Shown one piece after another: positions 55,124 through 57,355 of a DNA stretch of 64,000 nucleotides. Made by a program: the position numbers and the translations under genes. The DNA is from an uncultured Planctomycetaceae bacterium (GTDB taxonomy: Bacteria; Planctomycetota; UBA8742; UBA2392): NCBI GenBank assembly GCA_964652605.1, contig CAZZBH010000001.1, forward strand, positions 12,670-76,669, written 5' to 3'. The notes below the pieces were generated by a model. It ran no database searches and was not told the DNA's origin. It saw nothing but the letters and a program-made list of their open reading frames with translations. The number at the start of each line of letters is the position of its first letter. Position 1 is the first letter of the stretch.

Positions 55124-57355
55124 ATGCCGGAGAATCTCGGAGCACTGTTCGACGACCGGCCTGCGCAATTGCGCAACATAGCCCGCTCCAGAACCGTCCT
55201 GGACGCAGTTACCGTAGGCGAACGGGAAGGCGCGCCGAGGATCCGTCACGCAACGGCAGACTTCGCTCAGGGCAGCACCGAATGGACCGTCCCGGGCGCA
55301 ACGCTGGCGGAACTGACCGGCATCCAGCCAGACAATGTCACACTCGTTCGCGGGGGCTCAAATGGCGCGTCCAGATCGCGGCAAGTGCTCAATAGTACAT
55401 TCGAACCAATCGTACAACCGGTATATCTGCATGATGTGCTGACCAGTCATGAAGTAAGTGCGGACACTCCCGTGCGTTCCATGCAGCTATCAATTGGCGA
55501 ATCGTCGCGAAACGATATCGTGTCGGTACGCCTTGACTCCGAGGCTCGGGAGTCCGAGGTTACGGCCGATGATGACGATGGAGCCGTGCCGTCCGAAGGT
55601 ATGTGGCCGCCGTCTTGGGAGCCAGAACAGAAGTGTATCTGCGACCGGGTACTGTTTTTTACGTCAACTGGGACCTCGTGGACGGAGCACAAGCACAAGG
55701 GCCCTGCGATAGGGATAGAAGTCTCGGCAGACGGCCGTTTCCACACAAAGGCGTACATTGAGATTCATACGCTTGGCCCAAGGTCCAACGACTTTGACTA
55801 TGAAATCATGGTCAAGGCGGGAGCTGACGAGGATAGTCCAGCATCGGCGCTGATTGGAATTGGGGACAAGCACGTTGAGAGAATGAAGGCAAAAAGAACC
55901 GCTTTCAGCGTTTGGGGAAACGCAAAGTGTATGTCTGCGCTTGGGTTCCCAATTGAAGTGGAGCGGTACACAGAGGAGGAAGCCGACAAGGAAAACCGGG
56001 CCAATGCTGCCGCCGGAATCGGCGCCAGAGTCACGGCTGGCGACTTCAAACAGGGTTCGGCGTGGCTGCACGTTGTCGTGGAAGGTGTGTTGTGCGGCTT
56101 GTTTGAAGTTATCGTGTCATCTCACGGCAATCCTTGCAGCCTTTCGACGGCGTCCAAAGAAGCAGAGGCCAAGCAGAAGCTGGCCCTGGAGGCCTGGGAC
56201 GGGGTGCGGTTGAATGTTCCTGACCGTGTTGTTTACAACTCATACCGAAGTTCGCGGCAACTGGAGAGGCAGGTGTCTCAACGCGTTGCGGATGCTCGTC
56301 GGCAGGGAAATCGTGCCGACGTTATAGCCGCTACTCGTGAGTTTGCAGTGGAGGTGTCACTCATCCCTGCCATCACCTGCGCCATGATTCATCATGACCC
56401 GAACTGTTGTTGTGCATATGTGTCCTCCGTAGAGCTCAAGCTGCAGATTGTCATTCATTCCCTCGCCAATAGTCCCGGAAGAAATCCGGACATTCCTGCA
56501 ACGACAGGGTCGGCAGCAGAGGCTTTCTGGATGCTGACCGAGACTGTACGCGACTTGTTCCTGTCCGTTCCGCCACAATGTCGCTTTCTAGAAAAGCCGG
56601 ATTGCGAAGCGTGGTGTCAGTCCGGCAGGTACGCCGGTTGCCCCGCCGAGATGAACGACGGAGTTGCGAAAGCTTTGGACGCCGTCTGGCAGCAGTGCCT
56701 GTCGCTGTTCAAGGGCAACCCCCGCTCTGCGGATCGCAATGCGGGGAACGTGACCAAAGGTGGCTACGTGATGTCGCCCACGGCATGGAGTACCGCCAGT
56801 CTTGTCGCCGATTGCGAGGAAGTCGGAGATTTGACGTTGCTTATCTACGACTTGGTCGGCGTTGATCGGCAACTCATTGATGACATGGTTGCGTCTGCGT
56901 CAAACATATTGCTACAATGCTGCGTTCGTATAGCCTCCTATACCATCGACAAGTCAAAGCAGGTCAAGGACCCCGATAGAGATTACTGGGGGTATCAGGC
57001 GGACGCTGTTGCCGCTACTCCGGGCAGGCATTTAGTGATCATCGGCCCACAAGAGTCCAGCTGGGTGAAGCGACACCTTGTTGGACATCCAGGAACGATT
57101 GCTTTAGCTGACTTACCAATTGCGAGCGGTAAGGTAGGCAAGCGCATTGCTATGTGGGGTGACGGAGTTGGCGGTCTTACACTAGCGCACGAACTTGGTC
57201 ACAATGCTGGAATCCTTCATCTTGGACATGGACCCGCCTTTGTCATGAACGCCGGCGTAGAGGCGGGCGTTCAAGGCATGCAGAACTTGATGCGTTACTA
57301 TTGGACTCCGCAGGACTGCAGGTCCTTGAGGCGGCTGCCCGAGGGCATGGGGTAG
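55124..57355 (+). CDS. large protein with a C-terminal metzincin (reprolysin-like) zinc-protease motif
   Basis: 743 aa. HELGHNAGILH (nt 57188-57220) matches HExxHxxGxxH, and Met residues follow (GMQNLMRYY). Cys clusters are present (HHDPNCCCAY; CRFLEKPDCEAWC). No signal peptide was seen. G+C is low. Confidence 0.6.
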   Translation: MPENLGALFDDRPAQLRNIARSRTVLDAVTVGEREGAPRIRHATADFAQGSTEWTVPGATLAELTGIQPDNVTLVRGGSNGASRSRQVLNSTFEPIVQPVYLHDVLTSHEVSADTPVRSMQLSIGESSRNDIVSVRLDSEARESEVTADDDDGAVPSEGMWPPSWEPEQKCICDRVLFFTSTGTSWTEHKHKGPAIGIEVSADGRFHTKAYIEIHTLGPRSNDFDYEIMVKAGADEDSPASALIGIGDKHVERMKAKRTAFSVWGNAKCMSALGFPIEVERYTEEEADKENRANAAAGIGARVTAGDFKQGSAWLHVVVEGVLCGLFEVIVSSHGNPCSLSTASKEAEAKQKLALEAWDGVRLNVPDRVVYNSYRSSRQLERQVSQRVADARRQGNRADVIAATREFAVEVSLIPAITCAMIHHDPNCCCAYVSSVELKLQIVIHSLANSPGRNPDIPATTGSAAEAFWMLTETVRDLFLSVPPQCRFLEKPDCEAWCQSGRYAGCPAEMNDGVAKALDAVWQQCLSLFKGNPRSADRNAGNVTKGGYVMSPTAWSTASLVADCEEVGDLTLLIYDLVGVDRQLIDDMVASASNILLQCCVRIASYTIDKSKQVKDPDRDYWGYQADAVAATPGRHLVIIGPQESSWVKRHLVGHPGTIALADLPIASGKVGKRIAMWGDGVGGLTLAHELGHNAGILHLGHGPAFVMNAGVEAGVQGMQNLMRYYWTPQDCRSLRRLPEGMG

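Follow-up and report, generated by a model that had tools for sequence, protein, structure and literature searches.

Why should a protein with a metzincin-type zinc site, and with no signal peptide, be encoded close to a capsid-like gene in a planctomycete chromosome? The question is raised by a stretch of 64,000 nucleotides (hereafter the window) from an uncultured Planctomycetaceae bacterium (GenBank assembly GCA_964652605.1, contig CAZZBH010000001.1, positions 12,670 to 76,669). An initial annotation, made from the sequence alone, had noticed the zinc motif near the end of a 743-aa protein. It proposed that this protein could be the cargo or effector of the neighbouring capsid-fold protein, with a downstream lipoprotein as its partner or inhibitor.

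The insertion and its leading genes

The gene for the 743-aa protein belongs to a cassette of four genes with housekeeping genes on either side. GC content and genome comparison place the cassette in a low-GC insertion of 4.9 kb (53527..58427, + strand), located between an hpnA-like gene, which ends at 53526, and an aas-like gene, which starts at 58428. The GC content of the insertion is 0.56-0.59, compared to about 0.63-0.65 in the flanks. In four genomes of the same genus that lack the cassette, the hpnA-like and aas-like genes are 100-170 nt apart, and in the closest relative the gap between these two genes is filled by unrelated ones. Terminal repeats flanking the insertion were sought and none was convincing; among promoter-like sites, also sought, none stood out. 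Scans of the window detected no phage families among the cassette genes, and there is no transporter in the cassette. Genes for the T6SS sheath protein TssC (451 bits) and for three RHS cores are present in the host genome. The cassette is horizontally acquired, and it is led by an HK97-type shell gene.

The leading gene (53820..54818, +) encodes a capsid-like protein of 332 aa, and its assignment comes from the PHROG and Pfam matches of its family. PHROG 212 ("major head protein") was matched by 15 of the 18 family members (best E 4e-8), the Pfam model of the SrpI-like Family 2A encapsulin shell by four of them (best E 4.4e-5), and SU10_MCP by two. The window's copy, taken alone, matched only NCBIfam MCP_gp7_epsi_15, with an E value of 0.036. 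Judged by these sequence matches, the 332-aa protein is of the HK97-fold shell type. The capsid profile had no sequence match in the PDB, and no relatives were found in a pattern scan of IMG/VR or in 50,697 phage genomes. Four paralogues of the gene are present in the genome, and in related genomes some of the copies are fragmented or interrupted by stops.

The capsid-like gene is followed by a gene for an 86-aa protein (54829..55089, +) with an N-terminal GCGCG leader motif. Its MxxxGCGCGS start is common to small ORFs of three other capsid loci (L009, L018, L020), and the Cys-x-Cys leader also stands at the extreme N-terminus of ORFs near the capsid gene in at least 20 of the 28 cassettes surveyed. 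The 743-aa protein does not carry this leader, unlike most cassette effectors, and the conserved terminal peptide that was thought might be shared by the 86-aa and 743-aa proteins as a targeting tag was looked for and not found. Between the stop of the 86-aa gene and the start of the 743-aa gene, a GC hairpin with a 7-bp stem (GCGCGCT / AGCGCGC) can be read from the sequence (55089..55109, +).

Architecture of the 743-aa protein and its metzincin domain

The ORF at 55124-57355 (+) is open and intact, and its translation, read from the window, comprises 743 aa. All the strings quoted in the initial annotation (DSEARESEVTADDDDGAVPSEG, CICD, HHDPNCCCAY, and CRFLEKPDCEAWCQSGRYAGC) are present in it, and the Cys clusters and the acidic tract described there are thus confirmed. 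The reported lack of a signal peptide was also borne out: the Kyte-Doolittle maximum over 15 residues is 0.5 in the first 70 aa, compared to 2.0-2.9 in the downstream lipoproteins. Single-sequence scans of the 743-aa protein against Pfam, NCBIfam and PHROG returned no family, and they detected no recognised trafficking domain (RHS, PAAR, LXG, CdiA, MuF or others); Pfam and NCBIfam specifically gave no PAAR, VgrG, Hcp, MIX or known adaptor domain. When the same three databases and PADLOC were scanned with the single sequences of the 743-aa, 86-aa and 227-aa proteins, nothing usable was obtained. A phmmer search of the PDB with the full 743-aa protein gave a chance match only. With the full-length model, Foldseek returned only a generic beta-sandwich for the middle part, and the viral library was uninformative.

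AlphaFold2 modelling, composition and conservation divide the protein into four parts. Residues 1-167 (55124..55624, +) form a disordered region with pLDDT 22-31 throughout, which contains no Cys and is net acidic (26 D+E, 14 K+R); a comparison with the orthologue P0002 revealed no similarity here. A beta-sandwich domain follows at residues ~170-340 (55631..56143, +), opening with a C-x-C motif (CICD). It was modelled as all-beta with pLDDT 50-85, and Foldseek gave only weak, generic Ig-like sandwich matches (UNC119, p53 DBD, Wzt CBD); domains that begin with C-x-C are also found in other cassette effectors. The third part, residues ~341-556 (56144..56791, +), is a Cys-rich alpha/beta domain modelled with pLDDT 65-90. 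Its cysteines include CCC at 428-430 and the group C486/C494/C498/C506, and the domain is kept in the relatives P0002 and P0003, with its CCC and C-x7-C motifs; a family match for it was sought and none was found. Fourteen cysteines are conserved, and the presence of conserved paired cysteines suggests disulfides. In the protease domain, the QCC and DC cysteines are both present in five of the six family members and both absent in the remaining one.

The zinc-binding motif HELGHNAGILH was read directly at nt 57188-57220 (+), where it corresponds to residues 689-699 (H689, E690, H693, G696, H699). From the composition of the protein, about 7e-5 occurrences of HExxHxxGxxH would be expected by chance. 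The initial annotation had confined the metzincin site to the last ~60 residues; the catalytic domain is in fact whole, spanning residues ~557-743 (~185 aa; 56792..57355, +), with the strands and helix of an N-subdomain preceding the HExxH helix and a short C-subdomain following it. Residues 572-743 were modelled with pLDDT 76 and pTM 0.81. The best Foldseek matches of the domain were ADAM33, snake-venom metalloproteinases, fragilysin, ADAMTS and MMPs (probability 1.00, TM ~0.6), and all 50 matches listed from the PDB were metzincins. A profile of the domain, searched against the PDB, found mostly adamalysin-type proteases (best E 0.002). The model, the structural matches and the PDB profile thus all support a metzincin fold.

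When the domain was assigned by HMM, Reprolysin_5 matched all six family members, and relatives of the window domain reach E 8.8e-7 against the Pfam Reprolysin models, but the window copy stays below every Pfam Reprolysin threshold (Reprolysin_3, 13.0 bits with a cut-off of 22.4; Reprolysin_5, 11.7 bits with a cut-off of 27). Among the Met residues after the zinc motif, which had been proposed to form a Met-turn, M708 in FVMN (57245..57247, +) is the probable one, since its place in the alignment is that of the "IM" Met-turn in the snake-venom protease BmooMPalfa-I (3gbo); the alignment does not support the later Met residues. A [VI]M Met-turn is conserved in six of six members; in the window it reads F-V-M, without the Cys of the adamalysin C-I-M. 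The third His is followed by Asp in only two of the six members, and in the window by Leu (H699-L). On the modelled fold and the profiles, the C-terminal part is a genuine metzincin domain with predicted protease activity. It is the only part of the capsid-headed cassettes with a recognisable biochemical function, and it therefore opens a direct experimental test of whether toxins are carried by a domesticated capsid.

Relatives, sister cassettes and the exported neighbour

The protease has very few relatives. Only five were found among 1.84 billion (1.84e9) representative proteins, and one of them, P0002, is a full-length orthologue (746 aa, E 4e-53) with the same domain order. The three His, the Glu and the Met-turn are present in all six members, so that the expectation that homologues should keep the motif held; HExxHxxGxxH itself can be followed in each of the six, with an insertion ahead of the third His in two and N for G in one. 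In P0005 (locus L015) the protease domain forms the very C-terminus of a polymorphic toxin of the RHS type, whose ORF is open upstream and matches TIGR03696 Rhs_assc_core (E 2e-9, 37.8 bits with a cut-off of 32.5). The domain thus occurs on differing carriers: proteins of capsid cassettes (window, L009, L016) and an RHS core (L015). Other searches added little. Word-index searches with the single sequence and with a three-sequence profile returned the query itself only, and a metagenome pattern scan returned only an unrelated actinobacterial secreted metzincin. In 400 Planctomycetota genomes the domain profile gave only weak matches centred on HExxH, the window's own genome excepted, and the 743-aa protein had no relative in the 50,697 phage genomes.

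The link to a capsid gene, suggested by the initial annotation, recurs. In the orthologous metagenomic locus L009, a capsid gene (product 62% identical to the window's) is followed by genes for proteins of 90 aa and 746 aa and for exported proteins, and in L016 the metzincin gene accompanies a capsid of a different clade. In the 28 capsid loci surveyed, the usual order is an HK97-type capsid gene, a signal-less effector and an exported protein, and effectors adjoin capsid-like genes in every one of them. Cassettes are multi-copy, with 1-12 matches per genome, and they are accessory, variable, low in GC and strain-specific. The effectors are modular: L016_420 and L016_399 are 71% identical over ~190 N-terminal residues, beyond which they diverge, and the pair L020_1120/L020_933 behaves likewise, with 74% identity over ~480 residues. 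These pairs with a kept N-terminus and a divergent C-terminus belong to sister cassettes; the window itself holds one effector. None of ten other large cassette proteins had a Pfam match. Since the other effectors have no recognisable domains, the word toxin is generalised here from very few informative cases.

The last gene of the cassette (57396..58079, +) encodes a lipoprotein of 227 aa when read from its GTG start; residues 48-51 form a lipobox, LIA|C, and a hydrophobic h-region is present as well. In all six loci, the metzincin gene is directly followed by an ORF with an export signal, which it overlaps or precedes by at most 40 nt. A lipobox-type cysteine is found in five of these loci; in L009 a plain signal-peptide protein comes first and a lipoprotein second. 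This arrangement fits the inhibitor role suggested earlier for the lipoprotein, and an exported gene product, usually a lipoprotein, is encoded at every protease locus; we infer an extracytoplasmic site of action for the protease. The downstream proteins show no similarity to one another by phmmer or by shuffled Smith-Waterman comparison, even between orthologous cassettes. Since they are not detectably homologous, the case for cognate immunity consists of position and export signals, and it is on these that we propose the 227-aa lipoprotein as a candidate periplasmic inhibitor or immunity protein cognate to the protease.

Interpretation and comparison with known systems

The explanation towards which we lean, with moderate confidence, is that the 743-aa protein is an effector of the polymorphic-toxin type, a metalloprotease with a putative periplasmic inhibitor or immunity protein, possibly packaged in a shell. 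It would be a modular protein, in which a disordered N-terminus of 167 aa and two family-specific Cys-rich domains precede a C-terminal reprolysin-like metzincin of ~185 aa that behaves as a polymorphic-toxin "CT" module, placed on varied N-terminal carriers. The protease would act on a target or sister cell, either in its periplasm or at its envelope, where the lipoprotein would neutralise it. Most likely, the shell, the small Cys-x-Cys leader protein and the disordered N-terminus of the effector would serve to recruit, store or dispatch it. The initial annotation had left the choice between a sequestered and an otherwise exported enzyme. The relative at the RHS tip and the swappable effector genes point to the second of these, an exported antibacterial toxin, rather than to permanent sequestration.

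Could such an effector leave the cell without any shell, the capsid-like protein being only a chaperone, an adaptor or a co-mobilised neighbour? The T6SS sheath and RHS genes of the genome make another export route possible for the 743-aa protein, a relative of its protease domain is located on an RHS toxin, and T6SS effectors with envelope targets typically come with immunity lipoproteins in the periplasm. We nevertheless consider this unlikely, since Pfam and NCBIfam scans of the protein detected no PAAR, VgrG, Hcp, MIX or known adaptor domain, effectors stand beside capsid-like genes in all 28 loci surveyed, and the capsid family is related in sequence to self-assembling shells. Rather improbable, in our judgement, is a classical encapsulin-type nanocompartment, in which the protease would stay sequestered within the cell for good, as a cargo enzyme for housekeeping or regulated proteolysis and not a toxin. 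Multi-copy, variable, low-GC and strain-specific cassettes with swappable effector C-termini speak against it, as do an RHS toxin that uses the same protease domain and 14 conserved cysteines suited to an oxidising compartment; the exported protein paired with each effector would be needless for a cytoplasmic compartment. It would, however, account for the match of the shell family to the SrpI-like Family 2A encapsulin model, for the missing signal peptide, for the absence of phage genes nearby and of relatives in phage collections, and for the long disordered N-terminus, which resembles that of Family 2 cargo (PMC8346489).

The other alternatives have still less in their favour. That the protease is secreted for degradation or nutrition, with a periplasmic inhibitor for self-protection (as AprA with AprI/Inh) and a fortuitous link to the capsid-like gene, strikes us as quite improbable. 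Serralysin operons do pair a metzincin with an adjacent signal-peptide inhibitor, and the conserved cysteines suggest an extracytoplasmic enzyme, but the cassette has no transporter, the capsid linkage is repeated in three metzincin loci and 28 cassettes, one relative is the tip of an RHS toxin, and the gene is extremely rare and strain-specific, unlike nutritional proteases. We find it very unlikely that the cassette is what remains of a decaying prophage or satellite, with the 743-aa gene as a non-functional leftover or a moron. Against the capsid-type shell gene, the low GC and the stops or fragments in some capsid copies of related genomes stand an intact 743-aa ORF, a full-length orthologue that keeps every catalytic residue, a layout of three or four genes kept across many genomes, and a cassette with no other phage gene, whose capsid has no relative in the phage genomes or the IMG/VR pattern scan. 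That the shell is matured by the metzincin, acting as a prohead protease, is scarcely credible: the metzincin gene adjoins a capsid gene, as those of prohead proteases do, but known prohead proteases of the HK97 lineage are serine proteases with an assemblin fold. We rejected the idea, since the domain profile found the domain in only three of 30 capsid loci scanned and an RHS toxin has it too.

Returning to the packaged-effector reading, it is tempting to generalise it, although here we are inclined to doubt more than to believe: chromosomal, phage-free HK97-type shells in Planctomycetota might package or dispatch polymorphic antibacterial toxins, each with an exported immunity protein, and with the Cys-x-Cys leader and the disordered N-termini as loading signals. 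Small capsid-headed mobile cassettes may give bacteria a new means of packaging or dispatching toxins. If this is true, they would constitute a protein-only "toxin capsid", a mode of trafficking apart from T6SS, CDI, MuF phages and eCIS and a new delivery principle in bacterial antagonism, with a class of cargo unknown so far for encapsulins or encapsulin-like shells. The 743-aa metzincin would be the first such effector with a readable enzymatic activity, and its family a new and very rare group within the reprolysin-like metzincins, serving as interbacterial weapons.

As an enzyme, the C-terminal domain is closest to the adamalysin/reprolysin metzincins (M12B: snake-venom metalloproteinases, ADAM/ADAMTS) and to fragilysin (BFT, M10C), with which it shares the HExxHxxGxxH zinc site (located on the active-site helix), the Met-turn and the fold. 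The adamalysin wording HELGHNxG is identical, and a further common feature is a cysteine that probably tethers the C-terminal helix. The adamalysin domain is somewhat longer (~200 aa against ~185 aa); their typical Asp after the third His is replaced in four of the six members here, and their Met-turn Cys is absent. Unlike them, the 743-aa protein has neither a signal peptide nor a classical prodomain, and in it a disordered region and two novel Cys-rich domains precede the fused protease. The pairing of a serralysin with its inhibitor (AprA/AprI, Inh) is similar to the present one in that a metzincin is encoded beside a signal-peptide protein able to protect the periplasm of the producer; however, there is no type I secretion system, no RTX region and no sequence relation here.

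The genetic organisation recalls polymorphic toxins (Tox-MPTase1-5, RHS; PMC3482391), with a variable C-terminal module on conserved N-terminal carriers, a small gene directly downstream as presumed immunity, and accessory, low-GC, strain-specific loci; the same C-terminal domain is even found on an RHS carrier. The domain differs from the Wss1-like Tox-MPTase families in being a metzincin, and the profile scan gave no Tox-MPTase match. Instead of an RHS, CdiA, PAAR or LXG carrier there is a novel region encoded beside a capsid-like gene, and the presumed immunity proteins are exported, mostly as lipoproteins, which is reported to be exceptional in polymorphic toxin systems (Zhang et al. 2012, PMC3482391). 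About 20% of the MuF toxins of temperate phages are metallopeptidases, and the module to which the toxin domains are attached is predicted to lie inside an HK97-lineage capsid (Jamet et al. 2017, PMC5576092; Zhang et al. 2012). A toxin domain is thus tied to such a capsid, as we propose here, but without a MuF domain, portal, terminase or phage, the capsid gene standing alone in the chromosome. Family 2 encapsulins of the SrpI type likewise have a stand-alone HK97-type shell gene without phage genes and an adjacent enzyme with a long disordered N-terminus (Andreas & Giessen 2021, PMC8346489), although their SrpI-like Pfam model was reached by only four of our 18 shell proteins, and weakly. While the known cargo of these encapsulins consists of metabolic enzymes, e.g. 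a desulfurase or a terpene cyclase (PMC8346489), the cassettes described here encode a hypervariable candidate cargo, pair it with exported proteins, and are present in multiple copies.

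The metzincin domain of the 743-aa protein

The 743-aa protein belongs to a new and very rare kind of reprolysin-like metzincin, which serves as a module of polymorphic-toxin type within a cassette headed by a capsid-like gene. Translation confirmed its open reading frame (55124-57355, plus strand), and direct reading placed HELGHNAGILH at nt 57188-57220, residues 689-699. From the composition of the protein, the HExxHxxGxxH pattern is expected by chance about 7e-5 times. The translated protein contains the acidic stretch and all three Cys clusters described in the initial annotation. 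The reported lack of a signal peptide was also upheld, as the N-terminus has no hydrophobic segment: Kyte-Doolittle values in the first 70 residues peak at 0.5, compared to 2.0-2.9 in the downstream lipoproteins.

The 743-aa protein matched nothing in Pfam, NCBIfam, PHROGs or PADLOC when scanned as a single sequence, and an exhaustive phmmer search of 1.84 billion representative proteins returned only five relatives, P0002-P0006. The alignment with P0002 (746 aa) spans residues 304-741 (E 4e-53), P0003 has 581 aa, and the similarity to P0004, P0005 and P0006 is confined to the last 150-190 residues. Alignment of all six C-termini delimits a domain of about 170-185 aa, comprising in order a strand, a helix ending LLQCCVRL, strands, AHE[LI]GHNAG, H-x-G-[HY], [VI]M and W-T-x-x-D-C-x-x-L-R. 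Every member keeps the two His and the Glu of HExxH as well as a third His and a later Met, and two of the six have an insertion ahead of the third His. Compared to PDB sequences, the profile of this alignment matched mainly adamalysin-type proteases (snake-venom metalloproteinases, ADAMTS, ADAM17, fragilysin), and the best match (E 0.002) covered the HExxH helix through the Met-turn. An AlphaFold2 model of residues 572-743, built with the alignment, reached pLDDT 76.3 and pTM 0.81. All 50 of its listed Foldseek matches in the PDB were metzincins, including ADAM33 (E 5e-4, TM 0.61), atrolysin, acutolysin, BFT/fragilysin, ADAMTS, MMPs, karilysin and snapalysin. Alignment, profile and fold thus contradict the earlier notion that the metzincin part is limited to the last ~60 residues; they delineate a complete, compact catalytic domain, and we regard its identity as a metzincin domain as highly probable.

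HMM assignment of this domain succeeded in part: Reprolysin_5 was matched by all six members (best E 8.8e-7), Reprolysin_3 by five and Reprolysin_4 by four, but the window member's own Reprolysin scores fell below the Pfam cut-offs. Its domain also contains neither H-D after the third His nor Cys-Ile-Met. Because these two adamalysin-specific markers and the Pfam cut-offs failed, we place the domain in a divergent reprolysin-like branch of the metzincin clan, and not in M12B. The QCC cysteines and the DC cysteine of the last helix are both present in five members and both absent in P0006. This co-occurrence in the aligned sequences suggests that they form a disulfide, which would imply an extracytoplasmic working environment.

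The full-length AlphaFold2 model (pLDDT 55.7) has four parts: a disordered N-terminal region (residues 1-167, pLDDT <31), a beta-sandwich with a C-x-C motif at its start (residues ~170-340; 55631-56143), an alpha/beta domain holding the CCC motif (residues ~340-530) and the C-terminal metzincin domain. None of the 18 cysteines lies in residues 1-167, and 14 are conserved in P0002 and P0003. In Foldseek, the middle part gave only generic Ig-like sandwich matches, and the full-length model found nothing useful among viral models. The best structural matches of the beta-sandwich, albeit weak, were UNC119 lipid-binding sandwiches (E about 1e-3, TM 0.41-0.45), some of these PDB entries being complexes with an LCK peptide. 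The N-terminus of LCK is a myristoylated Gly-Cys-Gly-Cys sequence, and MGCGCGS occurs in the neighbouring 86-aa protein (54844-54861); this likeness is probably a coincidence, though a peptide-in-sandwich interaction is conceivable.

The cassette and its capsid-like gene

The metzincin gene is the third of four co-directional genes in a low-GC stretch (GC 0.56-0.59, versus about 0.63-0.65 in the flanks). The first encodes the 332-aa capsid-like protein, the second the 86-aa protein (54829-55089), which starts MQNGKMGCGCGS, and the fourth a 227-aa protein with the lipobox LIA|C. The cassette lies between an hpnA-like and an aas-like gene, which in four same-genus genomes are separated by 100-170 nt. 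In the closest relative (G402:C114, 1672-4849, locus L036) the gap is filled by an LRR lipoprotein (245 aa) and a 758-aa permease, with no capsid cassette. Since the gap is near-empty in four congeners and holds other genes in the closest relative, the cassette is an insertion of 4.9 kb into a site of variable content; a search of its ends showed no clear terminal repeats. The hpnA-aas intergenic site is a recurrent insertion hotspot.

PHROG 212 'major head protein' was matched by 15 of 18 members of the capsid-like family (best E 4e-8). The Pfam model for SrpI-like Family 2A encapsulin shells was matched by four of them (best E 4.4e-5), and SU10_MCP by two. This small family comprises 38 clusters, every one from Planctomycetota or unnamed sources, and no relative was detected in 50,697 phage genomes or by an IMG/VR pattern scan. 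The gene is present in 19 of 23 genomes of this bacterial family, with 1-12 matches each, some broken; the window's genome has four copies, one low-GC island apiece.

The proposed link of metzincin homologues to a capsid-fold gene was borne out, since the loci of P0002 (L009) and P0006 (L016) both have capsid genes. L009 has the same order as the window: a 341-aa capsid (62% identical to that of the window), a 90-aa MNNNPGCGCGS protein, the 746-aa protein and two exported proteins. P0006 lies directly downstream of a capsid gene from another clade, whose product is 59% identical to the C29 paralogue of the window's genome, and a lipoprotein gene is next. Many capsid cassettes of other genomes also encode a fibre-like protein, 550-675 aa long and marked by the motif STDNAIARYDGTTGKxIQNS (L009 11579-12646; L017 11058-13085; L019 13788-15434; L020 15510-17480; L021 14541-16241), which resembles the tail-fibre proteins of phages. 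No clear copy was found in the window's genome. If shells are released, the fibre-like protein could be a receptor-binding component.

Features of a proposed toxin module across cassettes

A survey covered 28 capsid loci, some in the window's genome and others in related genomes or on metagenomic contigs. Usually the capsid gene is followed first by the gene of a signal-less protein of 300-750 aa and then by that of a protein carrying a signal peptide, a TM segment or a lipobox; GC in the cassette genes is typically lower than around them. At all six metzincin loci, the ORF directly 3' of the metzincin gene overlaps it or follows after a gap of at most 40 nt, and carries an export signal. Five of these ORFs have a lipobox-type cysteine; the exception, L009, has a signal-peptide protein, then a lipoprotein. 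Upstream of P0005 the ORF stays open as far as the contig end. This added part matches the final portion of TIGR03696, the RHS-associated core (E 2e-9; 37.8 bits against a cut-off of 32.5), so an RHS polymorphic toxin carries the same protease subfamily at its C-terminal tip.

Two pairs of capsid-cassette effectors have N-terminal regions in common and different C-termini: P0006 and the protein encoded after its lipoprotein gene (the pair L016_420 and L016_399) are 71% identical across the first ~190 residues, and L020_1120 and L020_933 are 74% identical across ~480 residues before diverging. A second HExxH-type C-terminal family, unrelated to the metzincin, ends the effectors L020_1120 (L020 11266-14628; AHELAHLVQGC) and L046_712 (a 712-aa ORF, G402:C10; AHELGHAIEAC). 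Neither this module nor any of ten other large capsid-cassette proteins had a Pfam match.

Two effectors of the window's genome are split, into 220-aa and 378-aa ORFs by a lone in-frame TAG (L006, G000:C5, 6498-6506, minus strand), and into 204-aa and 557-aa ORFs in different frames with a 32-nt overlap (L007, G000:C3, 6356-6387). The homologue in a same-genus genome (L020) is a single 1120-aa ORF. Because the parts are also separate in L046, the split could be a genuine arrangement of two genes and not a product of decay or recoding.

At least 20 of the 28 loci have C-x(1,2)-C-[GASP] within the first 150 residues of an ORF starting no more than 3 kb from the capsid gene. The motif is usually at the extreme N-terminus, and its carrier is usually the first ORF downstream of the capsid gene (window 54829-55089; L009 7629-7901; L016 from 875; L050, L052, L055 and others). 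Within one subgroup, some 40 residues are common to the leaders (NCxTCxPxGLKxxxxNGRxRVEVPxDF), whereas the window's clade has the leader on its own ORF of 70-95 aa. The leader may act as a signal for loading or secretion, or as a metal-binding tag. A targeting peptide shared by the 86-aa and 743-aa proteins was also sought, and no common peptide was found.

Possible function and comparison with known systems

We lean towards the metalloprotease and the lipoprotein being a toxin/inhibitor pair. Since the downstream exported proteins have no detectable mutual similarity, those of the orthologous window and L009 cassettes included, it is position and export signals that point to cognate immunity. 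The 743-aa product would be synthesised without a signal peptide, and its disordered N-terminus, aided by the Cys-x-Cys leader protein, would bind it to the HK97-type shell. After release or transfer, the disulfide-stabilised metzincin would cut an envelope or periplasmic target, and the lipoprotein would shield the producer and its kin. Packaging by the shell is a tentative element of this scheme, and we consider this element somewhat less likely than not. Delivery of the effector by a T6SS is a possible alternative route, since the window's genome has a T6SS sheath gene and three RHS cores. The sheath (TssC/VipB) homologues (451 and 76 bits; G000:C30:20573-21472 and C22:23089-23868) and the three RHS core genes are in themselves noteworthy for a Planctomycetota MAG. 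As a whole, the interpretation in the initial annotation is partly borne out, for the metzincin fold and the capsid linkage.

The RHS link, the swapping of C-termini, the downstream exported ORF, the layout found in the survey, the leader and the second HExxH family fit polymorphic toxin systems as Zhang et al. 2012 (PMC3482391) define them. The same paper points out that immunity proteins are secreted when the toxin acts at the cell surface, and that phage heads are the predicted packing site of toxins linked to MuF. About 20% of MuF toxins are reported to have metallopeptidase domains (Jamet et al. 2017, PMC5576092). This type of cassette may be a categorically new trafficking system. The role proposed for the N-terminus of the 743-aa protein is comparable to that of the disordered termini used by Family 2 encapsulin cargo (PMC8346489).
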